The notes beneath the pieces are model-generated. The model did not search any database. It was not told the DNA's origin and worked only from the letters and a program-made list of their open reading frames with translations. Both the position numbers and the translations under genes were made by a program. DNA of 64,000 nt from Amoebophrya sp. A120 (Eukaryota; Protista; Dinoflagellata), in the NCBI GenBank assembly GCA_905178155.1, contig CAJINV010000007.1, positions 2,957,151-3,021,150 on the forward strand, given 5' to 3'. Shown here piece by piece: positions 8,401-56,472 of this stretch; positions within the stretch are counted from its first letter, which is position 1; each line of letters opens with the position of its first letter.

Positions 8401-11400
8401 TGGACCAGCTTGGCGTTTTCGCTGTTTTTCGCCGCGAGTTGGTGCAAGCGCAGGTAAAAGGCCTGCATCCTCTGCGGCACCATGCGCCGGAAGGAAAATG
8501 ATAGACAGCACGCGGAACTGCTCGTCCTGGTTTGAACAGCTTGATCGCTGCTGTCGCGACCCGAGGAAATCGCGGCCGACGAGGATGTCGCTGCACCAGA
8601 GGAAGCAGAATCAGTCGAGGAGGATAGAGCCGGCGCTCCTCCCGCTTTACTATTGCTGCGAACTAATCCGCTTTCCTCGCCTTGACATTGCCTTTCCACT
8701 GCAGCAAGCAGGTCACATGTTATACCATACACTCCTCCCGGCGTTGTTTCCTCCGCGTTGCGGAATGTCTGTGGGCGACAGCCCGGGGTGGTTTCGTAGT
8801 AGTACTCGTTGTCGCTACTTTTGAAGAAAGATAGTAGTTCCGTGCTCGTCAAATCAATCTTCGGCACTTCTCCTCGTCCACGACCAAATGAGGTTGCTGC
8901 ACACGACCCGTCAGTTGCATCGTTTGATGCGGTTGTCGTGAACTCCTCGTGGTTTTCGTTCGTGTTACTCGCACAGGGCTTTGAACATGGTCCTGCAATC
9001 TTAGAAGCTGCACCTTTGATGCCAGACGTAGAAGTTGCAGCTGCTGACCTACTTGAAGAAGACGGCGGCGCACAACCTCTACCATTAATGCTGGTCGTCA
9101 TACACCACCGCACCAAGTAGCCGCACAAGTCCGCGCAGGACAAATGGTGTCGCAGTCCGCAGGCGAAAAGGAGCAAGGATTTCTCCGGCAGGTCCGGGTG
9201 CAGGAGGTGCTTGTATTCCCGGACAGGCACTGGAGATGAAAAGGATTCTTCCGCATATTTTTGGGCATCTTTCCTGCTCGTGCTTTGTTGGCTCGGATAA
9301 CTTCTAGAGCATCCGGTCATCTGCTTGTTGCTACCGTAACTTTTCTTCTGCCCCTTCCGTAATTCCCTCTCATTTTCTGACAGCAGCAGCAGACCACGGT
9401 TTGCCTCTGAGCCCGGAACCAAATCGGCACAGCAGTTGGAAAAGGGCAGGAACCGATTCTTCGTAAAGGTGTCTGCCGGCAGAGAATGCAAGAACCTGTC
9501 CGCAACTGCACCGCTGAAGCAGCTGCTGGCGCTACGACGACTTCTATTGTTCTTCCGAAGTACAACAGACGATTGACTACTGGAAGCCCGCCGGCGGCTA
9601 CAACTACCCACCGCGTTTGGGCACCAAGGCATGGTTCGGAGAAAGGAGAACAGGTCTAGGTTTCCGAAACAGTCCAGAAACAGCCCGCCGCAATCGTGCT
9701 GCACAAATTCGTAACACCGCCAGTACGACTGCATGGCAGACCAGTCCGGCGTCACGTAGTCGTCGTTGCAGGCCACGGCTCGCAGGCGGTTCAGTTCCCG
9801 GTCGCAAAAATTCACGAACTGCGTGATCGCGCAGAGAATTCTCGCAGATTTCTGCTCTGATTCTGCAGGATGAGATGTCAACATTCTGCTTCCATTTCTG
9901 CCCATGTTTCCACCACGCCCTGGTTGCCAGTAGTGCGTGTCGTAGACATGATGTTCTTGTAGGGCGCTTTGGTTTTCTTTTTCAATATCATCCCCGTTGT
10001 CATCATTTTCTTCACATGCCAAGTTGTAGGCGACGGCTAATTCGGAAAAAATCGTTTTGAGAAAAAGCTCGCTCCGCCGCTTAGATGCGACCGTCAACCC
10101 GGGCGAGAAAAGACTGCGGACGTTCAAATGTTCGTGCAGCCACCGGAGTTCCTGTTGCTGCTGTTCGGCGACCCCAACAGCCCCCCTGTTGCAAACATTA
10201 TGACCACGCGCGTCGGACTTATCATCATATCCAGTCCCGCAAAGCGCTGCGTGTCCGTGCCCGGCCCCACCTGCAGGATTTGTTGTACCACAACTAGTCA
10301 CCAGTATACTATCTACAACGCAGACGGGCAATTTGTCCGCTACTTTGGAAACCGAGTCCAAGGCCACCCGGTCGTCACTGTGCGGCGCCATCGCCAGCAG
10401 GTGCTGTCTGCTTGCCTTCACCAGCATCAGATTCCCTTTGCCGAGGGGCAGGGCAAACTGGGAGTCGAAAAGCGAAACCGGCACACAAGAACTGTCGGAA
10501 ATATCACAACTCTCGTCCTCCCTAAAGAGCAGCTGGTACACGTTGTTCCTCGTGTATTCCAGGACGTCATCGCGGATTTCGGTCGTTGGAGCAATGGCGT
10601 TCTCGTTTCCCTTGCAGACAAGCCAGAGCGACTCTAATAGCGCGTTCCAGAGCGTGGGGTCCCGCGTCTTTAACTCATCCGAGAAATTCTGAAGGAACTT
10701 CAGCATCGATTTGTACGCCCGGTCGGCGCGCGGGGGCCACGACAGAACATGTTCTTGAAGTGGTCCTGGATGAAAAGGAACAAACTCAGAAGAATTAGTC
10801 AAAGTGGTCTGATGCAGTTCCAAGACATTTTCGTACGTTGGTTCCTCCGAACTTGCAACACAACTTCCGCTTGTCTCAAAGAAGATGAAGGATTTCGCTT
10901 CGGGCGAAAGCAGGGAGGCGTGCGAGTCTTTGTGCGCCTCGCAGTACTCGGTATGCAAGAAAAAAACTGTGTAAGTGTAAGTCTGTCATGCAAAGTGTGC
11001 GACCCTGTTGCACTTGTCATGCTAGCCAACCATGAAGTCCTATTTCATTTCCATTTGTGCTTTCACTTATTAGTTGCGCATGACAGGCTTTGTCTGACAT
11101 GCAGAACAGATTTGTAATGCTGTCACCTCAAGACACCTACACTAACACAGTTTTTTTTCTTGGATACTCGGTGATACGCGTGTACTCGTCGAGAATGTAG
11201 TGCGCAACTGTGGGGACGGAAAGTTCCTGAACTCCGTACACTCGTGCGAGAACCGACTTCAAAGCCGACCGCGCGTCACTTGTGTCGGTCTCCTGCTGAG
11301 GGACAACTACATGAGCACCACTTTGATTTTCTGTCGCCGGCAATGGCAAATTCGAATTCGTCTCGAAAGCCTGGAAAATATCCGTGTCCAGAACCAGCAC

Positions 11401-19071: not shown

Positions 19072-19782
19072 CGCTGACGAAAACCTGACTCAGCAGCTTC
19101 TACAATTTTTCTACTTACTTATCTCTCTCCCCCCACAAACAGAGGCCAAAAAAGGCAACGCAAAAAAGCAACAAAAAAAAAAGCAACTTCCACATCAAAA
19201 AGAACTTAACCATAAACTTTCTAAATCACAAGGTGAAGTAGTCAACCAGTTAAGAGACAAGGGAAGCAAAAGTCTTTTTCCATAACAAGGGAACCTGAGC
19301 ATCGGTGCGTGATCTCTAGAGCTTGTTCGGGAGAGGAACAAAGAGCAGATGAAGTAGAAGACCAAACGAAACAAAGGATCTTTTCGTCGACAAGAATCAG
19401 GAAGAAAGAACATCCTCAAGGCACCTCTTTGTCATCAGCTTCCAAAAGCACTTCCGGTCGGGGAGGCGCTGTTTCCTCTTATAAAGCGTCCTTTCATGAT
19501 CAGACTGGATAAACTATTTGCACATTCACATTCATTCATCACGACATCTATTTAGTTTTAATGCACATAGAAAAGACTTCTGTGTGACATCGACAATGAC
19601 TTTCTGAAATCAATGATAAGGCTACTGCCGTAGCTGCTCATTTGCATTGCACTACAGGGTTCTTCCACACGGAAAACTATATCGAATTTAGAGGGAAAAT
19701 CACGGCGGACAACAAAAAAATTGCAGAAGTTGCACCAGTTGCGGTCTGTTCCGAACCAATAACACGGGAAGATGAAATCGAG

Positions 19783-22700
19783 CTAAAAGTCCTGTAAACA
19801 GGGAGGGGCCCATGGCGATTCTTCGCAGAATTCGTAGTCAAACCCTATCTCTTTCTCGAAATGTTGCCGGCTCCATGTCGGCCGCGCTTCTGCCGGCTTG
19901 GAAGAGGAACCTCCGCGGACCGACTGGTACACATAAAGATCAACAGAAAGCTGCGACTTGCTACTTCTTCCGGCGATCTTATTGACTGGCTCCGGATTTA
20001 GTTCCAAGCTTTGTGGACAACCTGAACCTGCGGTAGGCTTTGGACGACGATCAACATGATCCCCTCCTATTGCATTGACAACGTCATCTTCATCACTCTC
20101 GCCATTGAGCCTACCGTTCATTTTTCGCAGCTGGTGCATGTAGGCCTCCAACTTTTCCAAGATTCTACGTCTTTTCGAAACGTTAGGGAAAACGTCCGCC
20201 ATCAAGCTTTCGCTTTCGAAATACACCCGGTGTCTGTCATTTTCGATGTCGTCGCAGCTACCATCAGCCCTTTTCGCAGGTGCGGCCGCTCTTTTCTTTC
20301 GACAACTAGCTTGGGCAGCCCTATTCGCCACGGCGGTCAGGTACTCTGGGTCGTGCTTAGACAATTTCGGAAACTCCTCTACGCAGCTCTCCACGGACGG
20401 GCAATCTTCCTCCGAATAGACCCGCGCGTCGACCAGTTCTTGCCGGGAAGGTTCTTTTCCTTTCTCTCTGTCGGATCCGCCTCGTTCTGCTTCAAGGCCC
20501 ATTACCACGTCGCCCTCGTCGTCTAATGAGACCACGGAGGACCGTTTTTTAGTCCCTGCAATCAGGTCTCGTGCTGCTTCACGACCGGCCTCCTCCGCAC
20601 TGCCTTCCGGCACCTGACCCGGCGTCGTGAAATTCGAATATAACGCGCTATGACCGACCTCCATTGAATCTGCAGCTCCATGCAGTCCGTGCACTGCAGT
20701 TGTACGCGCTCCTGCGTCATGTTGTACCTTGCCAACATCTCGTTGTTGTTTCTTTTCTCCATTAATTGAAAATCGCGATTTCTCATCGACATCAACAAGG
20801 TGAAGCCCTTCGTTTGCGTCTTTTTCCATGCTCATGATGATGTACCCTACTTCTGCTGCTTCTCGCCCTGCAGCACCAGGAGCACTAGAGTCCGGAGGTT
20901 GATGCGCCGAATCTATTTTTTGTGGCTTTGGAGGTTTTATTACACCACTGTCCAAATTACACCCAGAATAATTCCTTTCATTCGAGAACTTTTTCCTCCG
21001 CAGTGTGATGTACGTGGCCAGACTAGGTTCCAAGTGCCGTGCCCAGGTTTTGTAGTAGTCCGGTGCGGAAAGCAAGTGGATCAGTTTCCCGTCGTGTCCC
21101 ACCCGGAAATGGATGCTGTCCTCACCGCTAGGCTGGTGTCCGCGAATGATCAGTTTGAGCTGATTCTTTTCCAAAAATTTTTCCGTAACTTCCCTCGTCC
21201 AGCCGCCATTGATCATGCGCAGGCGGCTCGACTCGGCTCGCCCGAGGATCTCGCTCATGTACACTGACTTGTCTATGAATTCCCGCTTTGGCCGGGCCGG
21301 TTGTGGCGGTCCTGCGGGGGACGCCCTTGGGGTTCGAGAAGGGGAAGGTGTCGGGCCCTGTGATGGTGGTTGATGTTCCGGTGACGTCGATAGAGTCACA
21401 GATGGTGACGATCCAGAAACAGATGATCCACTCTTGCTCAATAGAGATTTTTGCTCCATCGCCTTATTTCCTTGTTTTTCGTACTTGACGTGATTTGGCT
21501 TGCTCGGCAGCAACTTGCCCCGATGGAGGGAATTTTCCCACGGATCGGCAAACAGGAACGTTTCGCGCACGCAGCAGGTCAAAAACTTGCGCGTGCGGGC
21601 GAACTCCGTGCCCAGCGAGGATTCCAGCAAGCGGTGGAAAACGCGAATGAGCAGTCGGTCGTAGGTCTCTCCGTCATCGGGTCGCTCATCCTGCCGAGGA
21701 AAAGATGACGAGGCAAGGCGATCTGCACGTTTTTCAACATCCTGTTCCTCTTCGGCCTGCACGTAGCCCTTCGCGAAGTGCTCCACAAAGCGGGTGAACA
21801 TGGTGTCCCACCGGCTCTTGACGCAGTGGTCCCACATCTGTGCGTTGTAGGTGGAACAGTAAGCTTCGTCCTGTTGTCCAAGAACGGTGAATAGTGTCCG
21901 GTCGATGAACTGTTTGAACCACGGCCTGGATATCACCTCCAGCGCTCGCGCCGCAGGATTATGGTCTGTGGTCTTAGCGCTTGGGTTATGTGGTGTAGGC
22001 TTTGATGTTGCGTCGTGATGTAGTTCCAATCGGCGCAAGAATAGTCCGCCGCTTGCTGGGGACTCGCCTTCATCTCCAGCTGGTGCACCAGGCTTCTTCA
22101 CTTGCGTGGAAAGGAACGACGCTTGGAGACCCTGTGGTGGTGTGACAGTTGTATCGAGTCGTGAAGAAGCTCCTGCACAAGGACCCCCACAAGGGATCAT
22201 CGCTGATACCGTCGGGGGCTGCGTTTTATTTGCAAGAATTTCTACGGATGAAGTCGTCGAGATCTCATCTTCGGACACATCAACCCGACGAGGACTTGCG
22301 GCTGCACTCGAAAAAACAGCGCTTGCTGCACTGGAGACATCAGCGGCGCTTGCCGCGCTAGAGAACATCGAGGGAGTTAACGGGGTCAATTGCCGTCCCT
22401 GGCTACTCAAGCAAATTTCTTCTTTCTGCACGTCTTCTTTTGCTGTCATCTCCGCGTCACGCCCGTGTTCCACATCCATCTCCATCGAGGTCACAGCGCA
22501 AGTGTCCGCCTTTGAAGAAGATAATGTTGGTCCTCCTGCTGATACTTTTCCCTGCTCCGCAGAACTCCTTCCGCATTCATCCTTCTCGTCCGCAGGACAA
22601 GACTCGGACGGCTCAGATGGAACGTCGTCCGACGAGGCAGTAGAATAAGTCAGCATCACATCATCAACAGCGGCATCGTCTTTGTCCACAAGAACTTCGG

Positions 22701-25131
22701 AAGAGGTTTTATTTTCCCCGTCAACTACAACACGACCCCGGTCCTCGTCGTCCTCGGATATAATGATCCTGTCGCGCCCCCGCTCCTGCGTCCCACCCGC
22801 TAAGTTCTTCACTTCTGGCATGAAATCGGAAATCCCGGCGTGCACGAGAAGTACCTCGTCGAAAACCGTGGCGACGTAGGGGAGATAGCCGAACAAGCCG
22901 TTGATCTGTTATCAAGTGTAAAAATGTCTGGGTCTGGAAGGTTGCCAGGTTTGTCATGCATATTTTGCACAACCCATGACGCCTGTAACGCCTGGCCGAG
23001 CATCACAGATTTTTAAAGGGCCTTCTGATGCGTATTCCGCATGAGAAACGCGCACTCCGCGTAGCACAAACTGAACTCCTCTTCCTGGTCATGCAATACA
23101 GATTTTTTTACCTTCCAAAGACAGCATCACAAGTTGCAACCTTCCAGACCCAGACATTTTTACATTTGATATCTGTTCTCGATACACAAACTCCTCGACA
23201 AAGACGGTGGCCTATCCCACAGAAAAAAGCTGGCGTGGCATATTTGCAATGCAAAAATAAATAGACAAAAAAATCTGTATTGTAAATCCGAAACAGCATG
23301 CTATGGGGCCACCCATGACAAATTTTTGCGTGTATTTCTTTTTGCATTACACCCATACTGAGTGGAGCGCGTTCACCCTTGTAGTAATTACAAATATGCC
23401 CTGCCAGCTTTTTTCTCTGGGATATGGCCAGCTCGACGCGCTGCAGATCGCCGCTCAGCGGACCACCATCGTGGTCGTGTCCTCCGAAAGGTGTAGTGGT
23501 CATCGCGCCGAGGGCGGAGAAGGGAACGTAGTTATCGCCGCTCTCATGAAAAAGCCCTCCTCGGGTGGTGCTGGTGCGGAGGTGCTGGTGCGACCCAACT
23601 GCTTGATAAAACCAAGAATCCGGTCCGTACGGAGATCTTCTCCGCGCCGCAGAAGCTGCTGTTCGGGAAGAGGAAGATGAATTGTAATTGTTCCCTACGA
23701 GTACACTTGCAACGCTGCTCGGCCGCAACACCGCAAAGACGTCTTCTTTCAAATTCGACGTGTTGTCGTTCCGCACCTGGTCTGCGCCATTCAACCCCGG
23801 GAGCTCGTGGTTGCCGCGAAGAAGCGTCACGCGGTCGGGAAGCCGCGCTTTCAAGTAAAAGACAAACAGCACCATCGCGAGGGACTCACCTGTATTTGTG
23901 CGGTGGCAGGTTTTTAAAATTTGCGGGTAAAAATAAATCGCCTGTTCGGTACTCAGGTCGGTTGTGATTTTACGGAAAATCAAAATGTAAATCAATGCAA
24001 CGAAGAGGCAAGTCATGCATAGTATACCACCAAGTGAGCCCCCAGCACTGCTGTCATCATGGAAAGACGCCACACGGCGAATCTTCCTATGCATTGACTT
24101 CTTGTATTTCGTAGCATGACAGCATGTTCTTGGGCCAACAACAAAAAAAAAGTAAGCACCGCAATACTCTTAGGCCCGCGGTCAACGTAATCACCCAGAA
24201 ACACTATGTGGGTGGACGTTTGATTCAGCAAGTCCATGTCTCGGATAATGCGCAACGTGTCCAAAAAGTGCCCATGCGTATCGCCCAGTACGTTCACAAG
24301 CGCACATCGAGCTCCTGCTGCTTGTGGAGACGTTGTTATTCTACTTGACGGGCCGCGGCGGCCCTTCGTTGCTCTGCTTTGTTCCTCAGCATCAAGGCTG
24401 AACTGCCCCAAGCGTTCCGTCATCCCGTCCACTTTTGACGCGGAGCGCGCAGCGTCGTGCTCTACTTGTGGCGCACGATCGACGTCGACTGGTGTTGCTC
24501 TCTTGTCGTCAGCTGCTGCTGTAGCTGCAGACGACTTTCTCACGATCTTCTGCGTAGTACTATGCAGTTCATCCTCCTGTCCGCAGACCCGCACGTGCAT
24601 CGGGGGGAGAACAGGATTTGTGTCGTCTTGGCCCGCCCCCGCGAGGACCTTCCAAGCTTTTTCCAGGATGTAACCCATGGACTTGAACAGCGCCCCCTGT
24701 GCGGGCGGGTACCGGGTCGTGAACGCGCTGTGGCCGCTCAGGTTGGCCTTCCTCAGTTCCTCCAAAATCTCCAGAAATAAGCTCTGCGCGCCGCGATGAT
24801 CCTCCAGGGACAGGGAGCCCAACACGGTTTCGTCACTCCACCCAAAATTCCGGCCGCTCTGCAGCCCCCGGGCCGCGAGCGACATCTGCATGTGGTCGAC
24901 GTGCGGGTCGATCAGCAGGTCCAATGTGCGCTCGACTTGCATTTCCCACTTGGCTTGCTCGGTACTGGGTGTCGTTGCAGGTGTTCTTCCCAGCACGGCT
25001 TTGCCGAACAGTGAAACTATCGTGTAATTCCACTGCAGAATTGCGAGAAAAAGCCCAGCAACCCGTCCCCGCCAGCGGGGGCGGACAGGAATTGCTTCAG
25101 TTTGGGGCCAAGCAAGGACACTCATTTTCAT
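19783..25131 (-). CDS. PPP-family Ser/Thr protein phosphatase with long insertions, 4 exons (25131-~24168, ~23889-23425, 23207-23172, 22904-19783), ~1,530 aa
   Basis: GDTHG, GDYVDRG, LLRGNHE, VHAGI, LFADP, IIRGHQ and SAPDY motifs occur in order across three ORFs. Removing two TIR elements gives RVELATVFVEEFVYREQINGLFGYLP in frame. Confidence 0.85.
22910..23171. mobile_element. Introner-like element (262 bp), TIR family A, TSD TCTGT
   Basis: tctgt|tatcaagtgtaaaaatgtctgggtctggaaggttg ... caaccttccagacccagacatttttacatttgata|tctgt. Confidence 0.95.
23213..23424. mobile_element. Introner-like element (212 bp), TSD TGGCC
   Basis: tggcc|tatcccacagaaaaaagctggc ... gccagcttttttctctgggata|tggcc. Confidence 0.92.
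23890..24167 (-). other. Intron 1 of the PPP phosphatase (boundaries ambiguous)
   Basis: Frame change between GDYVDRG and LKARLPDRVTLLRGNHE. GT-AG 24167-23890 is in frame; the interior carries gcatgac/gtcatg motifs seen in the introners. Confidence 0.6.
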
Positions 25132-26093
25132 TTTTTTTGCAGTTATTTTTCTTCCAAGAAAAGTATAGATAAGTAATATATAAGGATGGTCAAAAAGTAA
25201 AAATGAAGACAAAAGCAGTGGAATCCCACTCACTAGCATAGATGCAGCTAGGGCTAAAAACACTACACGTACACAAGTAAGGCGGATTCGAAATAATGAG
25301 GTTGCGAGCGTTGTAAAGCTGGTCGGAGCAACCAGAGCGGGCCGAGATGATCTACTTAATACTGGTGGTGGTGTAGTTATGCAAAGAAATGCATGCGCAA
25401 CGACGCAACCCTTGTTTTTGTTTTTGACCGAAGTTGGCAAAAGATGCATAAGGATAAGAGTAGATAATGTTCATGAGATAAAAGGTGGCACTCAAACATG
25501 AGGGAAACAGTACAAGATCACGACCAGGGCTGCGCGTTATAAATTGACACTACATTTTCATACTTCGACTTAAAGTTAAAATCAAACTGCTGGTCTTCAT
25601 CCACTACATAGATCTTCTGGAGGACGGGACGCCGGTTCTTGGACCTTTTGCAACAGCACTAGGTCTTCGGTGCAGAACAGATCGGTGTTGACAACGCTAG
25701 TACCTAGATCTTCCACTTCAACTAAGATAGAACGATGAAGTACATAATATCCTATCTAGATCGACGTCTTTAGTGACGAAACAACCGTTAGAGCGAGATC
25801 CAGCATTGAAGATCCTTGGCGTTCACGATGAGACTTGTACATGTCTACGTCGGGGGCTACGAGAGGCTCATTAAGTTTAAGGTTATCATCCTACTTCTTT
25901 CCACTTTCGCAGCAGAACAACTACCCTCACAAGGACAAGACAGATGAGAGTCAGTTGTTTTTTGAGCCATCTACTACAAAGCTGCCTCTAGATATGTTGA
26001 AACTTTCATCATCACAACAGCACAGCGAGCGCAGATAGTAATTATACATTCCATCATACAAATTGGGCGAAGCATAGCTCGTCCTGCTCTTAT

Positions 26094-27264
26094 TTAGCAC
26101 TTTTTGTTCGCCGCGAGAATCTCACTTCTGAGCCGCACGATATCAAATGCAAGAATGTCTGGGTCTGGAAGGTTGGAACTTGTGATGCTAACTTTGGAAC
26201 TCTGAAAAAATCTGTATTGCATGACCAGCAAGACGAGGAGTCTAGTTTGTGCTACGTGGGGAGGGCATTTGTCACGCGGAGGAGGCGTCAGGAAGCCCTC
26301 TAAAAATCTGTGATGCTAGGTTGTGTATTGCAGACATCCTGGGTCATGCAAAATATGCATAACAAACCCGGCAACATGCCAGACCCTGACATTTTTGCAT
26401 TTGATACACGACTTTCTGCTGCAAAACCAAATTCGCTTCCTTTACAGACAGCAACTCCTCGGTAATTGTTTTGTTCTTCTCCACCTCGCTCACCAGGAGC
26501 TTTTTCGTCGCCATCAATTCCGCCCGCTCCGACTTTGACAGGATCGCGAGGTTTTCCAAATTTCGTTGGATCGAAATAATGGTAAAGTCCTTGGTTTCCA
26601 GCTCGAGTTTCAACTTCTCGATCTCGCTCTCGTAGGCAAACTGGGAGCCCAGCGACACTGCGTTCATTTGTTCGGCCGCGCCGCTGGGACGAGCAGCTTC
26701 GTCCCCTCGCTGTTCGATGCGCTGTCGATGATGATCATGCTTTTCATTCTGCGGTGAATAGGAATTATACCAAAGACGGCTGCTTTCGTCGTCGTCGCAC
26801 TCACCTGCTGTAAGAGCTACACTAGCTCCACCATCATCTGGGGGCAGGTGCTCTACTAGGGACAAGGAAGAAGATACAACAAATTCGCTGGAGGAATGCG
26901 GCTTTGGTGTAGCAGAACAAGCCTGTTGTTGTGGATGCTTTTGATGCTGCAGGTTCGGCGCACCACACCCTGGCTCACCATCCGGTAGCTCAAACTCCGG
27001 GACAGGTTCCGAAAAGACGACGTCATTTTCATACTCCGCTGCAGTGCAAGTGGAATAGCTTGCTCGCTTAGTAGCTTCCGCCCCGTACAGCTCGGCCGCC
27101 CGGGCTGACAGCGCTCGCATCGACTCCAGCAACGCCTTCGGGCGGTCTCCTGCTCCCCGAGCGGATGGCTGTGGATTGTTATGTTGCCATAGCTCGTGCT
27201 GTGACGAGGCGGACGGACAGGAAGTGAAAATATTCCTGCCGGGAAGGCTTGCCTGTTGGCTCAT
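26094..27264 (-). CDS. Hypothetical coiled-coil protein, 299 aa, 2 exons (27264-26407, 26135-26094)
   Basis: Heptad-rich C-terminus EIEKLKLELETKD...LQQKVV continues as RLRSEILAANKKC* after element removal. Confidence 0.7.
26141..26406. mobile_element. Introner-like element (266 bp), TIR family A, TSD CACGA, reverse orientation relative to the copy at 22910
   Basis: cacga|tatcaaatgcaagaatgtctgggtctggaagg ... ccagaccctgacatttttgcatttgata|cacga. The interior matches the reverse complement of 22910-23171. Confidence 0.95.
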
Positions 27265-27317
27265 TTTCTTTGTGTAGTAGTTCTTTCACTATGAAGGTCG
27301 CGCCCGGAGGGCGATAT

Positions 27318-28724
27318 TGGTAACCAAATGCGTGCGCGAAAATCTAACCAGCGCGAAAGCCTAACCAGCCGCGCGGCGAAAGCGCGGCCCAGCGGGCCGC
27401 GCTTTCGCCGCACGACTGCCGCCACCATTTCTTTTTAATTAGAATCCCACTTCTATCCCGGGTCATCGGGGGCTTCCGGATTCGCCTTCAAAGCTTATCG
27501 CAGGAGCCTGCGGGCCGCCGCGGGCTCCACCACTTCCCCGCGGCCCTAAAGGGCCGCGGACAACTACTGTCGCCCGCGGCGCCCCGCAGGCTCCTGCGAT
27601 AAGCATTGAATGCGAAATCCGGTCTGCTAGTTCGCAGCGGGGCATCCTTTCTAGCCCCCTGCGTGACAAACTGGCCCCGTGACCAGGAAGGAACGCGAAA
27701 GGCCGAAAACCCGCGAACCCTTCCGGGCCACCAAAATCGGCCATTTCAGACGCGGCGGAGGTTCCGGATTTGTGCCCACAATCCAGGGCAAATGGGGACT
27801 TTGTGACATCCCTCCGCCCGCTTCTAGTGCGGTTTTTTTTTCAAAATCGCGATGGCACGGCGCGACCACGCGCCCGCCGGACCGCCCTTGGCGGCCAGTT
27901 TGTAAGCCTGCCGAGGGTTCTCGATTTTTTTTAATTTTCGCTCTTTTTTCAGGTTTTTAGGCGGCCGAAGGGCTCCGGACATTTTCGCCGCCCGCATCTG
28001 GCTGGCAGTTTTGAAGCCTGCGGAGGGATAGCGCTTTCGCGCAATTTTTCATCTTTTTCTGGTTTCCAAGTGGCCCGGGCGGCCTGGACATTTTCACCGC
28101 CCGCATCTGACTGGCAGTTTTGAAGCCTGCGGAGGGATTGCGCTTTTGCGCAATTTTTCATCTTTTTTCATTTTCCAAGTGGCCCGGGCGACCTGGACAT
28201 TTTCACCGCCCGCATCTGACTGGCAGTTTTGAAGCCTGCGGAGGGATTGCGCTTTTGCGCAATTTTTCATCTTTTCTCATTTTCCCAGTGGCCCGGGTGA
28301 TCTGGACAAAATCCGACGATTGCTTCCACCCACGTTATAAAGCAATTCTTTGCCATCTGCTTCCGGACAGGTCGCGGGCCTGCTGCTCCAACGCAGCTGG
28401 CCAGCGGGCGGAGCAAAAAATACTCCGTCTCTTTTGCAGATATCAAGTGGGCCAAACCGCAGAAATGCTCTTTTTTCACCTTCTCCCGCTTGGTTTCTGC
28501 CATTTTTGCGAGATTTTTGACCTCCTGGCCATTTTCCCATCTGGTCCGCTTTTTTTCCCTTCTCCCGCTTCATTTCTGGCCATTTCCCTGACCTTCACGC
28601 CCCCCGGCGGTTGCCCTATATGGTAACGGCAACTGCCTTCGCGCTGCGTTTGCTAAGCAATATCGCAAGCGCGCAGAGCGCGCGCGCCGGCTTCGTGGGC
28701 CGGCGCGCACGCATTTGGTTACCA
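27318..28724. mobile_element. 1.4-kb GC-rich non-autonomous TIR (foldback/MITE-like) element
   Basis: Perfect 21-bp inverted repeat tggtaaccaaatgcgtgcgcg (27318-27338) / cgcgcacgcatttggttacca (28704-28724). Contains internal hairpins and tandem repeats; no transposase ORF; no perfect TSD. Confidence 0.7.
27977..28308 (+). repeat. Tandem repeat, 109-bp unit x3 (plus a degenerate upstream copy)
   Basis: ggacattttc..ccgcccgcatctg..tggcagttttgaagcctgcggagggat starts at 27977, 28086 and 28195; ggac recurs at 28304. Confidence 0.9.
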
Positions 28725-30847
28725 GATCAGAGGAATTCAAACGATCCTCCTGTTGACTGCAGCCAGCTAGTGAATCAATATCCGGCGTCCACACACCGTG
28801 CATCAAATAATCGGTCCTGCTGCGAAGCAGATCATCGTCAACATCGTACTTTCTCTCATCTTTTGATCTCAACTGTTCACTCGTACAATTCGTCTTTGGT
28901 GCCTGACCCTCATCAGAAGCAACATTCATCATGCAATCGGCAGCAGTACCAAAGGGCCGAACAGAACGAACGACAAATAGCGGTCTTTTCGTATGCCGAA
29001 TAAACGCACCCGTACAACTCGTAGCAGCAAGGTGAAAGTGTTAAATTCCTTTAAAAACAAAGACAAAGAGTTTCATGCCGCAGTGCTGTGTGTGTTCAAA
29101 ATTGTTGATTTTGTCATGCTTATGCGCATCGATCACCCAAGAACCACAAAATTCCCACTCGGTATACCTAGAATTTCATTTTATGATTACACGAAAATGC
29201 TCTCCACTTCTTACTTCTTAGGCGGGTGAGCGTCGCTGCACCTCCTGCATTTTACATTTCACTTCACCACGAGAAAATAACTCTAAGTTTTTGGGACAAA
29301 AAAGAAAAGAACTTTATAGCTAAAGTGTGAAGACATCATCGGGGTTGATAACGAAAGCGGTACTGAGTGCACTCCTGGTACTTGAATCTTGATTGGAAAT
29401 TTTCACTTCGGCTTAGTATTTCCAGATGTTCTACTTGAAGGGGGGAATAAGTTGGTAAGGGAAAATTTAGCTCGAGTGTCAAAACTCGAACTGATAATGT
29501 ACGGAAGGGTAACATCAACAGTACTCAATCAAACTGAAAGAAAAATTTGCTTAATTTACAATCGGTTAAAAAACGTAGTGCAATTGCTCTCACAACGACA
29601 GAGACAAGGAGACGCGACGCGAAAGGACAGAGAATAGCGATAGCTAAAGCAATTTGGACTTTCAAAAGCACGCTACAAAATTCCGCCGCGCACGTCATCT
29701 CCGAGTTTCCGCCTTTGCACTGCGCCCGTGAGAATTTTTCATTCTTTTTCTTGCAGTATTTGCGATTGAAATTGATATGTATTAGAAAGGGACTTTTTCT
29801 TCTTATAATGCCGTCGCTTTAAAGTTTCCCCAGAATACTTCTGCACCTTGTTCATAATCTACAAAAAAATCGCACCTGACAAAAGAAAGAACCCGCTAAA
29901 GAAGTAGTGCTAAATTTTTTCCCGACAATACACAAACGAAACGAAAACCACTTTTGTACTACTAAAATAAACTATCTCATACTTGCAAAGGAATCATAAA
30001 AAACTTTAGATACTTAGTATAACATCGAGGCATGCATATTAGGAAAATCGGTTGTAAAACGAATCAAAATTTGAATAGTTGTCGGTTCTTTTTTCACGGT
30101 TTATTTCTAAAAAAAGTTTGATACACATATTTCATTGCCATCAAAAGTCTCAACTTCAGGAGGAGCGTGAACTTTCCCGGATATTGCAGTACCTCGTCCT
30201 GGTTGTTCTTTTCACGCACGAGCACGACTGCGCAATACTGTCGGTACTAGGCCACGTTCTCTGCTGAAATCGGATTAAGAAAATAAACTCCCTGACGCGG
30301 ACTCTTATCAGGAGCGAATAAAAACTATCGTTATCGATATAGAAGATCATGCTAGGGTCACTCTAAATCGCTAAAATAGTTCACATTTTCGGCCCGCAGA
30401 ATGTTGTAATGTACGTGGAAGAGTGTGGTCGGTTCTTTTTTCAAAATCTTTTGTCGATGATAAAGCAATAATGTACAAGAGAATTTTGGCATTTCGACTT
30501 CGAATACTAAATAGAGGTAAAAACAAACTTAATGTACAAGAAATCATCAAAATCATCACGAAGACTCACGTGTCGATTCACCGACGAGAGACTCCGATCT
30601 ACTGTACCGGATGAAATGATAATGCGTGATAAGGAATAGATTCGAACGGTTTATTTTACACACACAGCAGCTTCTTCGAGTGGAAAGTTGATTTCTGTTT
30701 CTCGCTTTCATTTTGAGAAACGAGAAAAACCACGCGGCCATCAGGTCGTGCATATAATACATTTTCAAGAAAATAATTTTACGTGATTTCATTTTTTGCC
30801 TGTTGCAATTCCTGCTATCGAAGCTGATGTTTGAAAATGTAAGAGTC

Positions 30848-33800
30848 TCACCCTCGGCGAGACCAGGGGTCCGTCGGTGTAGTGGCCGAAGCTGCTGCAG
30901 CTGCGAGGTCACCATAATGCTGCTCGACCTCGCCCTCCCCTTCTGAGTCGGACCCGAGCCCCGGTGGAGCGGAAAGAACAACCGCTTTATTCATCTTTGC
31001 AGCTGCGCGCGAAGAAGATGTCGTCATCGAGGTCGGATGCTGGTACACCACGAGGTTGCTCTTTTGAAAAGAAGCAGTATAGGTCGGTGGAAAATCGTGT
31101 TGCTGCGAAAAAGCTGCTCCCTGTGCGAGTTGTGAAGAAGACCGTTTTGCTCCTTGCTGCGTCCTCGTCGTGTCATACAACGGATAGTTCCTGTCCATCA
31201 TCTGCTCGCGCAACCGCGCTTCCAACTGCTGCCGGAGGAACGCCGGCGGAGACGGCGGCTGTACCGGAAAATTTGCTCCTGTGCGTTGATTGTGCGGATT
31301 ATAACTAGTCACGCCTGTGGACGACGATGTTGTCGCGTGGTCCTCGTTTGCTGGCGGGTGCATGATCGCGCCGTCCTGACCGTCGTGCTCCCCGGCCTGA
31401 ATGAACAGTTTGTTTCCAGGAGGTCTTCCTGTGCCGTTCCGTTGCGGTAGACGGTTGCTGCCCGTCACGACTGCCGGTCTCTTGTTAGTTGTCTGCAACA
31501 CCGAGCCAAATAGTGCGCGGTCCGGAGGGAAAGCAGGATCGTCGTGCTGGGATTGTTGTTGTTCAAGAACAACACTAGTAGTTGCGTTTTCAGCGGGTTT
31601 CTGCAGATAAGGTGCCCCTGGTCCAGCTCCAGGAGCCGTTGCAGCAGTAGAAGTGGAGGAGTATGCACTAGCCCGTGCCGCTCGCTCCCACGCAATCTGT
31701 TCTGCCAGTGGGTCGCGATAATACGCGGGAGAAGAACCGGACAACAGCGGCGGAATCCTGGTCGTGCCGTTCGCAGTGGTGCTCGCTGTCCCGAGGGCCG
31801 CAGCAGTGGGAGCAACAGTGGGCGGCTCGACGCCGCCGTGGTAGTGTTGATGATTATTTGCGTTGTAGTAGTACTCCCGATCGTGTTCCGTCTCGAACGA
31901 CGGACTGGCGTTTGACGTACTATTCTGCGAAGCGCCATCACCATTGTCGTACTGCTCCACCTCGGCTCGCTGCAAGTACTCGTGCATCGCCAGCGCGGCT
32001 TGGGCCTGGAAAAAGTTGTGTTGAATGTAGTATCATCCCGCGAGGTTAAGTATAGTAAGCAAGCAACTGTAGTGAATCTAGAGCCAACCGACGACAAAGT
32101 TGCTTGTTTATTTCATGCGCAGAGTCAACAGCCAGTATACAGAGCCATTAAGAATTCTCATCTCTGATGCGCAACATTTATGTAGAAACTACAACATCCA
32201 CCGCTATAATAATCAGATCTCCATACCTGCATTGCCCGCCGCTGCTGCACGACCTTTGTGGCGGCCAAATGAAAGTAGTGTCGCTCCAACCAGAGTCGCC
32301 TTTGCTGCATCAAGATGGCCTCGTGCTCTTCCTTATGAAATGCAAAAATGTCTGGGTCTGGAAGATTGCGAGATTTGTCATGCTTGTCTGGCATGACAAA
32401 AAAGTTTGTGATGCGTGTCCAAGAAGAGACCCTTTTGCCTGTCATGCAAAAACGCAGTTTCTCATGCGAAAAACGCAACACAAAGAAGCGCAGATATTTC
32501 TCATGCATGGCTGTGCGTTACAAAGCATTCACTATTTCCAACACAGCATTACAAGTTTCCAGACCCAGACATTGTTGCATTTGATATTCCTGGCTCGCCG
32601 GGTACGCCGCGTCGCGTCGAATGTGGTTGAACTCGCGGATCTCGCCGCCCCGCCCGGCTATCGCCACGGGATGCAGATTTTCCGGCACGACTGGGTAGCG
32701 GTAATTACTATTTCCAGCAGTGTTCATCGAATTGGATGGATTGCTGTTGGCGTTGCTCATCAAAATCGGGGGCCCCATCCCGGGGACGACCCCACTAGCA
32801 CTTGTCGACGTTGTGCTCGCGAGAGACGATGAAACAGCCGTTTTCCCAGCACCTCCCGAAGTAGAGCTAATACCGCTTTTGCTCCGTTTCCGCCCGGACG
32901 CAGCGGAGGTGGTGTGCTGCGACGTGTGTCCCCCCGCCGAGTGCAGGGAACTGCTCTCCTCCTGCTCCGCACCGGTAGTGCTGTACGTGTCCAAGCGGGA
33001 CGTAAGTGCGTCGTTGGCGGAGGAAGAGTTCATCGCGTCCGGACAGTAAATCAGGTCCACCGGCGGCTCCGGCCCGTAGAACATGGAAGCTGAATTAGCC
33101 TGCGCCTCTTGAGTAGTAGAACACTCGTTCTTACTTCCCACCGCATCGTTCGCTTCCTCCACCAAGGCCTCCACCTCTGACTCCCCCGGATGCCAGAACC
33201 GGCACTTCTCCGCGCCGTGCGTGCACTTGCCCTGCAGAAAATGCCAGCACACGTCCGGAAACTTGTGGCGGACCTGCATGAGCGCCGCGTCGTACTTCGT
33301 GGTCACGTGCTGCGCACTCGCCGGCGCCCGCCGGATCTCGGAGCCCCCGGACTGCCGATGGGGCTGAAGATGAGACGAGGGTTGTTTCTTCGGTTGCTGG
33401 TTCTTGTGCAGCTGGGCGGGTGGAGTAGCAGTGGCCCCACGTTGAGCGGCGGTCGCGGTTGCGTCATCGCTTGACGTATTAACTGGCTTGTCCGTGTTGT
33501 TATTGGCCTTGTTGTTGGACTTCGTCCAACACTCTCTTCGTCCACGACCACTCTCTTCGTGGTTTACGTTTCGTTTCATCTCCGGCGTGAACATAAATGG
33601 TTGCGCCTGCATGCCATGCAAGTACAACTCTTCCTTCTCTTTCGCTTTTTTGCTTCTCGCTTTCTTCTTCTGAGCTGCGGTTCGCGGTCGCAAACTCCCG
33701 TACGCCGGCTTCGCGCCCGGGTCCGCAAAGAAACGATAGTTGATGTTCCGCTCCTGCCGTTGGGGTCTGTTCTGTTCGGTGGACTGCTTCGAGCCCCCGT

Positions 33801-45143: not shown

Positions 45144-48100
45144 TCAGTCTGAAGTGGAATCATCCCAGATCACGATCGGAGCCGCACAAACACCCCTTTC
45201 CCACAGACCGATTGGTGAGGTTGTCTCGGTAGGGGTCGCCCCGGGTCCTGTTGATGGGAATGGTGATCCCGGACGGTTTCCTTGAGCCGCCTGGTTACGA
45301 ACGCCCTCGAGGCCGCAATCCCTTCCGAAGAGTTTGGTCGGCGGGCCGCTTTCCTTTAGGATGTCATCGACGTGCTTGCTACGCCAAAACGGGAGGTTCT
45401 CACTTCCGTAACTTTGCGCCATTTCCGCGAATATTCTTACATGTTTCCTCAGTTCCCAGAGCGAATCTTCATTCTTCTGTAAAGCGGTTTTTAAAGGCGG
45501 CAGGTCCTCGATCTTAATGGAACCCCGAGATTCTGGCTCAGAACTGCACTTGTAAAAAAAGTGGATAGCAACATTTACCAGCGAAAACTTATTTTCCGTG
45601 GCGTCTTCTCCGAATGAGTCCACCCCGCGAAACTGCAACACGACTCGTCTACCATTGATCCCGTCGACATATTCGGTACTGAAGGCTGCAAGAAACCAGC
45701 GCATATTTTGCAGCGGAAGGGTGCGGAGACGAACTACGTGTGGAGAGTTGGGCTGCGAGGGTGGAGGAGCATCTCCCTCGGCTCCCGATGGCGGGTCAGA
45801 ATCATATTCTCGAACCTCGTAGTTTCGACTAAACCTCAACAAATTCCGAGCGATGACCGACCACCAGGAGGTAGGCTCCTCCTCACGGCTCGCATCTGAA
45901 GATGCGGAAGACGATCCACGAGCACCAGTATCCTGAGCAAAAACGTCCCCACACCAGAGTCAAGATGGGAAATCTGCTAGACAAATCAACCAGCTTTAGT
46001 TGTTTCGCATGACAAGTTTGTCGTCGTAGTCTGGTCCTGTTTAGCTAGTTCAGCAGCATCACAGATCTAGAATATCATGCTGATTCTAGCATTAAAAATT
46101 CCCAAACACGACTAGAAAATGCTTCTCATGGGGCTCCGCATGAGAAACTTTTTTGGCATGTAGATTGGGGTGGGGACGTTTTTACTCAGAATAACCAGGT
46201 CGCGTTCTTCTTCTTGGCACGTAGCTGCTGTACTCCTCATCCGGCCTTCCTAGCTCTTGCACAATGCGATATCCAAGATCAATCAGCCCAGACTGGTCTG
46301 CACCAGCGTCTCGCAGGTCGTGCTCTTCCCTCTCTGCGCGTGCGAGCACAGTTCGCGTGTACGAACGCAGTGCCAGTTGCTGGTTTGCGGTGAGTACGTC
46401 CTGCAGATCACGCAACCATGATGTAGTTCCCGAATCACGGTAGATCTCGCGCCGAACTGTCGTTTCCAAAAGATCTTGATAGTCAAGGGCACCTGATGCA
46501 GTTAGTGTGCTTGTGGGAAGATGAGACCTGCTTTGTTCCTGCGTCGAAGCTCGTCCAGGATCCGCAGTGGTAGCTCCTGACGGCACGACCAACGAAATCG
46601 TAAGAAAAAATCCCCCCTCCCAATATCGAAGAGGTGCGCCTTCTAATGCTGATTTGTGGCCACAAATCGCGTCTGTCCTGCAAGGAGGCAAGTCCACAGG
46701 CTCCGCCGCATTATGCAGGCGGCTTGTCATCCTGTTGGGCCTACAGCGCGGACGTTTTTCATGCTAAGCGCCTAGGCCAAAGCCTCTCTACTCAGGCTTA
46801 CTATGGGTCTGCAGTCCTCTCCAGCACGACAAACCTGATTTGTGTACGCAAATCCAGCATCAGAAACTTCGTTTTTGATATGGGGAGAGGAGATTTTCCC
46901 TTTGGATAAACGAATCAGAATCTTCCGGTCGTGTGCTGGTCACACTCCCGTATCTTGCAAAGTCCTTTATCCAGTCCACTACCCTTGCGCTGCTAAAGGT
47001 AGCAAAAAGGCTCGGGAACGTCGAAATACAATCCCTTTCCGCTGTGACAGCCAAAGAAGAACGCGCTGGTAGTACAGTAGCAAGACCGTCACTGCTCTGC
47101 TGAGCAGTGGAAGGCTCTCTCGTCGTGTAATGCGATTTCAACACCTCCGCGACATAACCTGCGGCACACTCGCAGGCCGCTGTGTAGGCTCGGTCAAACG
47201 CAGCCCTCTGCCGCTCAACCTCTGAACGAAGACCTGCTGTTCCCGGCAACAAACCGATCTGTTCTGCTTCTAGCGCGTTGCGCTTCGTTCGCACCAAGCG
47301 CAGCAGCGCACGCAGCGCTTCCGGCAGCCGGCGAGCTTCCGAAGCGGGAGCTTCCGAAAAGTTTTGTCCATTTTGGCTGTGCGCCTCGAGTGTCCGTCGT
47401 TTCCGCTGGGACCACGCGGAGGAAGTAAGTTGTATTGCCGTTCCGCGATTGTGCGCCATCCTTCGGTGGTCCCGCATCTCCTCCAGCAACGTTGTTAAAA
47501 AAGACCGCGGCACCAAATCACCAGCTTCAGGAGCGGTGTCGTCTTCTTCTACCCGAACTTCCTCCGGATCCTGCATTCTATACAGCAGTAGCACATTCTC
47601 ACCTTCTCGCTCAAACGAGCGCGCGTTTTCGCCGACTATGCGGCTGTGCAGCCCGAATGCCCGAGCCCCGGAACGGAGTGCCGCGACTGCCACCAGGAGC
47701 TGGGAAAGCTCCCCGAGCTTCTTGAGACGAGTGTCTAGTAGGTCGTGTTCTCGCGTCTGCCCGGATGGCAGTAGTCCCTCCCCCCCATGGGCACCGTTAT
47801 GTCGAAGCGCAGCTACTAGCGCGCCTCGGTCCGGCGCGGCGCCGCGCAACTGGTGCCCCATCAGCAACTCAAACGGCGCCCCATTTACGAGCCGTTCCCA
47901 CTCCTCACCGCGCAACCTCCAACCCCAAGGCTCACTCTGTGGTAGCGACGGTCTCTCAAACTCAAACATGTCCCGGAAAAACTGCAGTCGCGGGTAGAGC
48001 GCGTATAAGTCAGAAGATTGCTCATTCTGTCGATTCGCTGGTGTGATCACCTGCTCTGCATCAGGAATATCACCCGCATCAGCGAGTTCCTGCGCAGGAG

Positions 48101-54354: not shown

Positions 54355-56472
54355 TCATTCTGCGCGATCCACGCGTCGCCACTGGTTATCTAGGTCCTCC
54401 TTGAAGATGCGAACGGTTTCCTCCTCCCCGCAGGAGAGGCAGACACACAACCCCGTCACGGACCACGTGACACGGTTGACCGGGAGGTTGTTCTCTACAT
54501 GTATCTATCAAATGCAAAAATGTCTGGGTCTGGAAGAGTCATGCTGCTTTTGCATGACACAGTAGGGCTGTCATGGAAGCTCTAGCATCACAGGTTTCGA
54601 GAAGCTTCCGCAATGCCAAATCCGCATGACAAATGCCCCACTTTGGTGACAGAAAGTGGGCAGCTTTTGCTGCCTACGCATGAGAGATTTTTGTGTGCTG
54701 TGAAATGCGCATCACAAGTTTGCATTCTTCCAGACCCAGACATATTTGCAATGCATAGTATCGTCGCGCTGTTCTGCCAGTTCAGTCCCTCCATGGTCTG
54801 CACCCATATTTTGCACGTTCCGTCCTCGTATCAAAAGTAAAAATGTCTGGGTCTCGAAGAATGCATGTTTGTCATGCTTGTCTGGCATAACTTCTAAATC
54901 TGTCATGCACGTTACCCAAGAGCTCCATTTTTCTGTGATGCAGCAACGCAGTTTGTCATGCAGAATAGGCAACACCTAGAAGCTCAGAAACTTGTCATGC
55001 TAAGCCAGTATTTGTGGCCTCATCATGAGACGCCACCCAGCATCACAAGTTTCCAGACCCAGACATTTTTACATTTGATACCTCGGAACCGGAGGCGAGA
55101 AAATTCGAGGGGATGCCGATGTTCGGTCGCCAGGCGACGGATCGCACGGGCCCTGCATGAGAGGTCGGGGGCGGGACGGTGGAGCCCCCTCCAGACGGGT
55201 GCTGGTCTCCTTCGGGGTTTGGTGGCACTGGAGGTGAATCGCCGCTACTGCTCAGAGTGCCCTCTTCCACCCACTTTTTGTCGTCGGCGTTCCAGCGCCA
55301 TATTTTCACGTTGGAGTCGAAGCCGCCGGACACTAGTCTCCGCGGCCGCAGCGCGGGCATCATGTACCCGCCCTGCACCGCAGGGCCGGAGGCGAGGGTC
55401 GCCGGGCTGACGGGCACCGCCCAGCTCACGCTGGAAACGCCGTTTTGATGGGCTTTCAGCACGCCAATCTTCATTAGGGGGCCCGTCTGGTTTTGCGCCT
55501 CGAAAATGGTCACGAGGCCACTGGAGGAACCCGCGGCAATGAACAAGCCGAATCTGCGAAAATAAAAATCTTCTCAATTATCCGATGCAAAAAGTCTACC
55601 TCGATTCAGGGTTGGTTCTCTTCCACGTGCAGCTGCGGCGCATGATGTCGAGACAAACAAACCTCCAATTATCAGGAGTCTCATTTCAGCCTCTTCTTCC
55701 CGTCCTATGCAGCATCTAAGTATGCGCAATAAGATCCGATCGATAGATAAACATTGAGAAATAATCGTAATCCACGCAATCAACACAATACTCTTTCGGC
55801 CCTATCTGCACAGTTGTGGCAGCCCCGTCCAGCCTTTCTCGCCACACCAGGGACCAGTCGCCGGGCCGCCCTTCTCGCCAAAGCATCACACTGCCGCACG
55901 CGCCGCACGCTGCTATCATCGTCCCTTGTGTCGGGTCGCTCCAGCAGATCTGCTGCAACGGGCCGGCTACCTGTCGTTTTTTGTTATGTTTCGTTTATGT
56001 ACTATCTCGAGAACTTCCACGGACACGGAGACTCGTGCAATTTACCTTCTACGAGAATCTGCTAGAATTAGCCGTGTCGAGACACCAAACAAATCTTCCA
56101 CTGAAACCTATACCCAAAACCACAGCAGGCATCACAATCACTGTTGGTAGGTACGTAGAAAGAAAAAACATATACATCTGGGTGCTCCAGTCTGGCGACC
56201 AGTCTGGCTTCTTCTGTGCCCGTGGCCAACTTTGACACAATATTCTCCCCCGCTGTGGAGATTTCGTAGACAAAAATCACCCGGTCGCCGCAGACCGCGA
56301 GCCGTTTGCCATAGTAGTCGATGGCCAGATCCACGATCTGGGTGTTCTCCGGCACGTCAATCGTGCTGTCGGCCACCAGATTCGTGCTCCCCCCGCCGCC
56401 GCTGTAGATGGGAGCCGATGTCATGTACTCGCGCAGCCGCGCGTCCGCGGGCAACGTCGGGGGCGCGACCAT
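54355..56472 (-). CDS. SEC13: Sec13 WD40 protein (COPII/nucleoporin), 386 aa, 5 exons (56472-56176, 55970-55792, 55553-55081, 54823-54758, 54500-54355)
   Basis: DYYGKRLA, GPLQQICW, GPKEFGLFIA, AHQNGVSSVSWA, RLVSGGFDSNVKIW, VRSVAWRPNIG, LASGSE|DGTCKIW, RVTWSVTG, KEDLDNQW. Two GT-AG introns (56175-55971, 55791-55554) and two introners; exon total 1161 nt. Confidence 0.9.
54506..54757. mobile_element. Introner-like element (252 bp), TIR family A, TSD GTATC
   Basis: gtatc|tatcaaatgcaaaaatgtctgggtctggaaga ... tcttccagacccagacatatttgcaatgcata|gtatc. Confidence 0.93.
54829..55080. mobile_element. Introner-like element (252 bp), TIR family A, TSD CCTCG
   Basis: cctcg|tatcaaaagtaaaaatgtctgggtctcgaa ... 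ttccagacccagacatttttacatttgata|cctcg. Confidence 0.95.

Follow-up and report, generated by a model that had tools for sequence, protein, structure and literature searches.

Copies of one introner family lie in both orientations in coding sequence of Amoebophrya sp. A120 and are lost from transcripts together with one target-site copy

The system closest to the one considered here is the introner element of Amoebophrya itself. Farhat et al. (2021, BMC Biol 19:1) report that more than 60% of the introns of strains A25 and A120 are non-canonical and describe introner elements with inverted repeats of 8 to 20 nt at the intron ends and direct repeats of 3 to 5 nt over the borders, present in thousands of copies that belong to strain-specific families. 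The repeat motif that they give for A120 is TAT followed by seven variable nucleotides and at least three A; their proposed model (Fig. 4) has a hairpin joining the exon ends, and U1 small nuclear RNA (snRNA) is reported as not found in either strain. How tens of thousands of introns without fixed border dinucleotides are removed is a question raised in 2021, and we found no mechanistic study of splicing or hairpin introns in Amoebophrya in the literature from that year on. Here, we analyze a 64,000-nt stretch of Amoebophrya sp. A120 (GenBank assembly GCA_905178155.1, contig CAJINV010000007.1, positions 2,957,151 to 3,021,150 of the forward strand; "the window" below, with coordinates counted from its first letter), in which two elements of one family, A and B, are inserted in opposite orientations relative to transcription.

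Comparable introns are known from other lineages. The introners of Aureococcus anophagefferens and Polarella glacialis resemble miniature inverted-repeat transposable elements (MITEs), carry terminal inverted repeats (TIRs) and target-site duplications (TSDs), become introns on insertion, and insert either way in several classes; the preprint of Roy et al. (2020) records insertion in either orientation in Polarella classes and cites the same for Aureococcus. Insertion in the opposite orientation is built into the introner search method of Gozashti (2022), and the introners of A120 are derived from diverse TIR and other elements by Gozashti (2025). The nonconventional introns of euglenids (Nomura et al. 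2025; Mob DNA 2024 review) are described with variable borders other than GT-AG, pairing ends, TSD-like repeats, and a suspected MITE origin, and those of fritillarid tunicates (Mob DNA 2024 review; NAR 2026) as transposon-derived, lacking GT-AG, and efficiently removed by the host.

The main result is that a MITE with a 5-bp TSD inserts in coding sequence either way and that transcripts lose the element together with one TSD copy. A and B are copies of one non-autonomous DNA transposon of ~260 nt, a MITE of the Amoebophrya introner type, with TIRs, a TSD of fixed length, small size, no coding frame, and many copies. They are full-length reverse complements of each other with ~79% identity (262 nt and 266 nt). 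A repeat search returned two inverted matches between them, one pairing 22910-23087 with 26229-26406 (178 nt, 79% complementary) and the other pairing 23113-23173 with 26139-26199 (61 nt, 92%). When A on the plus strand was aligned with the reverse complement of B, each with 20-nt flanks, 230 of the 306 columns were invariant, and the similarity ended at the element ends. With the TIRs trimmed, the identity of the interiors is 0.79 in reverse orientation versus 0.52 in the same orientation, and a 23-mer quoted in a sequence-only reading of this DNA, which preceded our analysis, occurs exactly twice, once per strand. That reading had described A and B as reverse complements lying in minus-strand genes, and both statements are borne out. 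It had also described a symmetric TIR stem of ~30 bp; the symmetry stands, and the length is corrected to ~35 nt, as the TIRs of A and of B measure 35 nt with arms that are 89 to 91% complementary.

The family is not confined to these two copies. A 22-nt TIR core matches 10 sites in the window with at most three mismatches, versus none in 100 shuffles, which excludes chance and marks five copies (A to E). A and D share one orientation class, and B, C, and E belong to the opposite one. Three further elements have the same kind of termini. The eight elements are as follows.

22910..23171, minus strand: copy A; TSD TCTGT at 22905-22909 and 23172-23176; orientation class '+1'; intron of a phosphatase-like gene.
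26141..26406, minus strand: copy B; TSD CACGA at 26136-26140 and 26407-26411; orientation class '-1'; last intron of a coiled-coil-like gene.
32334..32586 (253 nt), minus strand: copy C; TSD TTCCT; orientation class of B; intron of a CCCH zinc-finger gene.
54506..54757 (252 nt), minus strand: copy D; TSD GTATC; orientation class of A; predicted intron of a WD40 gene.
54829..55080 (252 nt), minus strand: copy E; TSD CCTCG; orientation class of B; predicted intron of the same WD40 gene as D.
23213..23424 (212 nt), minus strand: element with an unrelated interior and the same terminal type; 38-nt TIR, TSD TGGCC; 41 nt from A.
10952..11166 (215 nt), minus strand: TAT...ATA element; TSD CTCGG; between two very long minus-strand open reading frames (ORFs).
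45929..46193 (265 nt), minus strand: TAT...ATA element; TSD ACCAG.

All eight are flanked by a perfect 5-bp repeat, and a search for TSD lengths of 3, 4, 6, 7, and 8 yielded only sub-alignments of these 5-bp elements. Their TIR starts all fit the A120 motif (TAT, seven variable nucleotides, a run of A). Together with the non-canonical introns, the TIRs, the direct repeats, and the arrangement of genes in one-directional blocks, this makes A and B members of the published class, whose element kind, borders, and hairpin model are already known; the 35-nt TIR, versus 8 to 20 nt in Farhat et al. (2021), is a difference, and nothing essential separates the two. In the main text of that paper, all four uses of "orientation" concern genes, and element orientation relative to transcription is not tabulated there. 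The interiors of the elements at 10952-11166 and 45929-46193 are unrelated to the A-E family, and a relative of the former with an imperfect TSD lies near 560-758. Nothing relevant came from an Rfam search of 22000-33000 with E values up to 1, as its two matches, at 27341-27407 and 28676-28730, stay below threshold and have no bearing on the elements. In a DNA-like sequencing run (X5), the bin of A reaches a summed depth of 121,133, versus ~26 in single-copy bins, a figure that is not a copy number.

Evidence for exact removal comes from contigs of four further runs of one sample (X1 to X4), labelled only 'RNA? (a guess)', which were compared with the window over 19500-33500 and 25400-33400, and involves three more features.

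23888..24165 (278 nt), minus strand: conventional GT..AG intron of the phosphatase-like gene; an X1 contig joins 23887 to 24166.
19783..25132, minus strand: host gene of A, PPP/metallophosphatase-like with long inserts; start codon predicted.
25993..27319, minus strand: transcript of the host gene of B; an X4 contig of 1056 nt on 27319..26407 plus 26135..25993.

In X1 to X4, the exons are covered, intergenic bins that stand at ~26x in X5 have no cover, and the GT..AG intron is missing. We take these runs as transcripts because the intron is gone from the very contig that lacks A and because intergenic cover is absent. That contig (X1, 4423 nt) consists of 19500-22903, 37 unplaced nt, 23425-23887, and 24166-24655, with 0 other letters. 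The genome has 521 nt between 22903 and 23425, so 484 nt are lost, which equals 267 nt (A plus TSD) and 217 nt (23213-23424 plus TSD); A and its neighbor are thus removed exactly, each with one TSD copy. For B, the joint from 26135 to 26407 skips 271 nt (266 + 5) with a 5-nt ambiguity and is present in X1, X3, and X4, with 68, 86, and 143 nt on the short side, and absent from X2 (three of four runs). The X5 contigs enter B from both flanks, showing that B is present in the DNA. For C, the joint from 32328 to 32587 skips 258 nt (253 + 5) and is found in X4 only (depth 4.93, side 62 nt). Removal is thus supported by RNA for four elements, A, B, C, and 23213-23424, and for D, E, 10952-11166, and 45929-46193 it is a prediction from reading frames. 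Element sequence stands at raised summed depth in the transcript-like runs, for example 144.7 versus 24.4 in X1 (bins 22769-23235 and 32109-32608), which could reflect precursors before splicing, introns after excision, or copies that lie in untranslated regions.

The reading frames agree with these joints, as the sequence-only reading had proposed for both A and B. Removing A, 23213-23424, and the GT..AG intron yields a single open frame of 1641 codons. Pfam places Metallophos in exon 24166-24654 of this gene, and the spliced ORF contains GDxHG, GDxVDRG, and GNHE, which we take to be phosphatase motifs. In the gene that hosts B, the frame stays open past the joint and reaches a stop after 14 further codons. 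The exon upstream of C carries Pfam zf-CCCH_4. If D and E are both taken out along with a TSD copy apiece, a single WD40-like frame stays open to a stop; exact removal of E rejoins a WD40 motif, and the exon upstream of E carries Pfam WD40. Exact removal of 10952-11166, which splits a would-be ORF of ~4,500 codons, joins ORFs open over at least 999 and at least 1000 codons, and for 45929-46193 the ORFs connected in this way measure 188 and 261 codons. Between A and 23213-23424, removal leaves just 36 nt of exon (23172-23212), and D and E lie 71 nt apart in opposite orientations within one WD40 gene; micro-exons between neighboring insertions seem to be tolerated.

To see how orientation is distributed beyond the window, a metagenome collection was scanned with a 20-nt TIR core. 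At least 145 loci were listed, all from one public assembly, and none overlaps the window beyond the element. The scan favors copies with an intact core, and the counts below are of copies among the loci listed plus the window, which is not a genome total. We obtained 138 paired-TIR elements with lengths clustering at 251 to 272 nt, 125 of them with an exact 5-bp TSD. After the 13 elements without an exact TSD and five duplicates were dropped, 120 unique copies remained (5 from the window and 115 from the scanned loci), and a signed similarity graph oriented all but one of them (119/120), with 3371 of 3380 edges consistent. The coding strand was then called with a codon-usage score derived from 10,233 window codons and extended outward to its maximum, a procedure that was right for all five window copies. 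It assigned a strand to 80 of the 119 oriented copies, the other 39 being dropped because no strand could be called with confidence. Two other ways of calling the strand were discarded: the longest ORF through the junction misclassified B and called no strand for A, C, D, and E, and a fixed 240-nt codon-usage window was confounded by neighboring introns and stops.

The sequence-only reading had called for orientation to be tabulated against host strand, and the outcome is balanced: on the predicted strands, 42 copies are oriented like A and 38 like B (binomial P = 0.74, n = 80). Both orientations also behave alike with regard to frame. Among the 25 copies with a clear reading phase in both flanks, exact removal of the element plus 5 nt keeps the phase in 23, where chance would give about one-third, and the share is the same for A-like (11/12) and B-like (12/13) copies; reading through instead meets a stop within the element in 24 of 25 testable copies. 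A weak coding signal on both strands was found for only 8 copies among those with long flanks, so most copies appear to lie within coding sequence. Orientation is thus balanced within coding DNA, which may be a small addition to the literature. Many scanned loci hold two or three family copies within 1 to 3 kb (e.g., L050, L057, and L065).

The borders of these introns are where they depart most clearly from conventional ones. Owing to the TSD, each copy has six equivalent cut registers, which read in gene orientation as AC..TA, CA..AA, AG..AC, GA..CA, AT..AG, and TA..GA for A and as TC..TA, CG..AT, GT..TC, TG..CG, GT..GT, and TA..TG for B. GT-AG, GC-AG, and AT-AC are impossible for both copies in every register, and B has no AG end at all. 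The transcript-supported borders of C likewise are not GT-AG; one register of 23213-23424 would give GC..AG, and E is open to a GT..AG reading. Among the 80 census copies, the registers permit GT-AG in 5, GC-AG in 1, GA-AG in 8, and AT-AC in 5, versus expectations of 2.6, 2.3, 3.3, and 2.4 from pseudo-TSDs drawn from flanking coding sequence, and GT-AG is impossible in the remaining 75. A search for a TSD motif in the 80 copies found none, and T, A, and T occupy element positions 1 to 3 in 77, 76, and 74 of them.

These borders set the family apart from its nearest analogs elsewhere. In Aureococcus and Polarella, as described, the element supplies one splice site and a constrained TSD (e.g., GHNN, AGGH) the other, giving GT/GC/GA-AG introns. 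The TSD of the present family shows no such constraint, 75 of its 80 census copies do not permit GT-AG, and the elements fall outside a definition of introners by canonical splice sites. The fritillarid introns are described with a preferred AG-A(N) pattern (per Farhat et al. 2021) and a modified spliceosome, and no such pattern is seen here. The euglenid introns, which belong to another lineage, are reported to be cut at set distances from a paired motif, a short CAG/CTG at +4 to +6 and -8 to -6 compared with the 35-nt TIR here, and circular products are known there. The euglenid signature, 5'-N3-C-D-G...C-H-G-N5-6 followed by a purine of the exon, is absent from our elements: positions 4 to 6 are C-A-A in the majority line of the copies, and no register puts C-D-G after 3 nt, except through a chance TSD.

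What does insertion in both orientations imply for removal? The sequence-only reading had concluded from it that no strand-specific branch point or pyrimidine tract is needed. This holds for part of the element. The first and last 35 nt are the same in either orientation, and only the ~190-nt interior is inverted; the conserved asymmetric motifs that the interior carries in the majority line are consequently not required in one sense. For the TIR arms, the conclusion does not follow, since a sequence or structural signal located there is orientation blind by construction. An unusual mechanism has a stronger case in exact removal at arbitrary border bases than in dual orientation because the 5-bp TSD that holds the borders is arbitrary in sequence and GT-AG is impossible in 75 of 80 copies.

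We favor, with moderate confidence, a mechanism in which the machinery would read the symmetric ends only, the TIR stem would bring the two TSD copies together, and the distances of the two cuts from the stem base would be fixed and sum to the length of the TSD (5 nt). The enzyme would most likely be the divergent spliceosome of this lineage, rather than a separate nuclease and ligase. This preference has three grounds: within one family, borders that permit GT-AG, GC-AG, or GA-AG and borders that are unrecognizable occur near chance frequency and are apparently handled alike; 15% of the canonical introns of A120 are reported to share the repeat organization (Farhat et al. 2021); and the same paper reports a nearly full set of spliceosomal proteins. 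A bolder version, a 'stem ruler' blind to both orientation and sequence, would make the TIR hairpin the sole signal, with cuts measured from its base and one TSD copy lost. We regard it as a tentative possibility. If true, it would mean an RNA excision rule matched to the staggered cut of the transposase, operating without conventional reading of 5' and 3' splice sites and possibly without a lariat.

Several points weigh against reading the data in this way. The cut register cannot be fixed, as the TSDs of all four elements with RNA support are perfect. The RNA nature of X1 to X4 is drawn from their content, the labels being only a guess, and the exact removal of A comes from the 37-nt arithmetic and ORF continuity in one run rather than from letters read across the junction. 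The strands of the 75 copies outside the window are predicted from codon usage, validated on the five window copies only. The predicted fold of the transcribed strand does form the full terminal stem, at -115 kcal/mol for A (z = -7.3) and -96.8 kcal/mol for B (z = -5.2), but any TIR folds into a stem, so these z-scores add no independent support. Of the 2205 positions of the 35-nt stem in 63 copies, 1913 are Watson-Crick pairs, and transition mismatches in the transcribed-strand stem divide evenly between G·U (57) and A·C (54; P = 0.85), which gives no sign of selection for RNA pairing beyond the conservation of TIRs for transposition. In each of the window copies A to E, the single transition mismatch is A·C in the transcribed strand; this bias is gone in the 63 copies. 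Stem quality in genic versus non-genic copies (P = 0.90) is a powerless comparison at 80 versus 8 copies. Hairpin-guided removal is plausible, and the computed tests neither support nor exclude it.

The best-surviving alternative is that an ordinary, relaxed spliceosome reads sequence in the TIR arms (donor, branch, and acceptor) and releases a normal lariat, with the hairpin a by-product. We consider this possible, though on the unlikely side. The identical terminal 35 nt would serve it equally well in either orientation, it needs no G·U excess in the stem, and it accommodates the copies whose borders are compatible with GT-AG, GC-AG, or GA-AG. It also fits the report that only 6 of 89 spliceosomal proteins went undetected (Farhat et al. 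2021) and the tunicate precedent, where non-canonical MITE-derived introns reportedly use a modified spliceosome (Mob DNA 2024 review; NAR 2026). However, cleavage falls within or at the edge of a 5-bp TSD of arbitrary sequence, with no fixed border dinucleotide, and the candidate sites that the arms do offer, GY at element positions 9 and 10 and the AGs of the 3' arm, go unused in B and C and, by the 37-nt count, in A. The reported failure to find U1 snRNA in A25 and A120 also speaks against it.

A pathway outside the spliceosome, either euglenid-like with circular products or built on an endonuclease that measures the stem, would keep the hairpin idea and change the enzyme. The non-canonical, variable borders and the predicted pairing of the ends would suit it; nonconventional splicing in Euglena is reported to be defined by a paired motif that keeps a fixed spacing to each border (PNAS 2025), and the nonconventional introns of euglenids reportedly occur as circles and have TSD-like repeats (Mob DNA 2024 review). 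Nonetheless, we judge it improbable. The Euglena signature is missing from these ends, as noted above, no backward joint is listed at any element (contigs being poor at showing circles), and the canonical introns with the same repeat organization suggest a single machinery.

It is very improbable that the joints have nothing to do with RNA processing and reflect insertion-free DNA or alleles in the runs, or excision from DNA. The uncertain run labels and the fact that MITEs can be polymorphic leave some room for this, but the contig that lacks A and its neighbor, with 4357 nt of exon matched, also lacks the GT-AG intron, intergenic cover is missing from X1 to X4, four separate elements would all need empty sites, and DNA contigs enter elements from their flanks. 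Least credible of all is that the reverse copy B stays unspliced and its gene terminates at 26344, at a stop inside the element, the case that the sequence-only reading had set against itself: the open frame from 27285 does run into the element and stop there, but the joint in three of four transcript runs and the frame that continues beyond it refute this as the major form, the contigs leaving room for a minor retained isoform.

With the favored stem-paired mechanism and its rivals set out in this way, the contribution of the family is an added constraint and a ready test set, not a new kind of system. The same element present both ways at equal frequency, at arbitrary 5-bp targets and with exact removal, amounts to a natural experiment on Amoebophrya splicing. 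Any model is thereby limited to signals in the symmetric ends and has to include a rule by which precisely one TSD copy is counted. The family also shows how a coding-dense genome can bear massive transposon insertion into exons.

The remaining observations concern the surroundings of these elements. The window has a G+C content of ~52%, and nearly all of its long ORFs lie on the minus strand, as do all 17 ORFs of at least 155 codons that were taken as genes. These 17 include very long single exons (1848, 2650, 2511, and 2183 codons), most without a Pfam domain, as well as two ORFs with protein kinase domains and one with SelR and SET. The best relative of the one window protein that was searched is from Amoebophrya sp. 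A25, with 42% identity. The ends of the GT..AG intron at 23888-24165 are weakly inverted-repeat-like (GTATTGCGGTG... versus its 3' end), and this intron may be an old copy from a different element family, one whose borders are canonical. A repeat-rich intergenic block at 27290-28710 contains a 67-nt near-perfect palindrome (27481-27547 and 27550-27616) and stands at a summed depth of 1,100 to 1,900 in X5, versus ~26 in single-copy bins. Several loose ends of RNA contigs fall at 27287-27336, near the 5' end of the transcript of the host gene of B.

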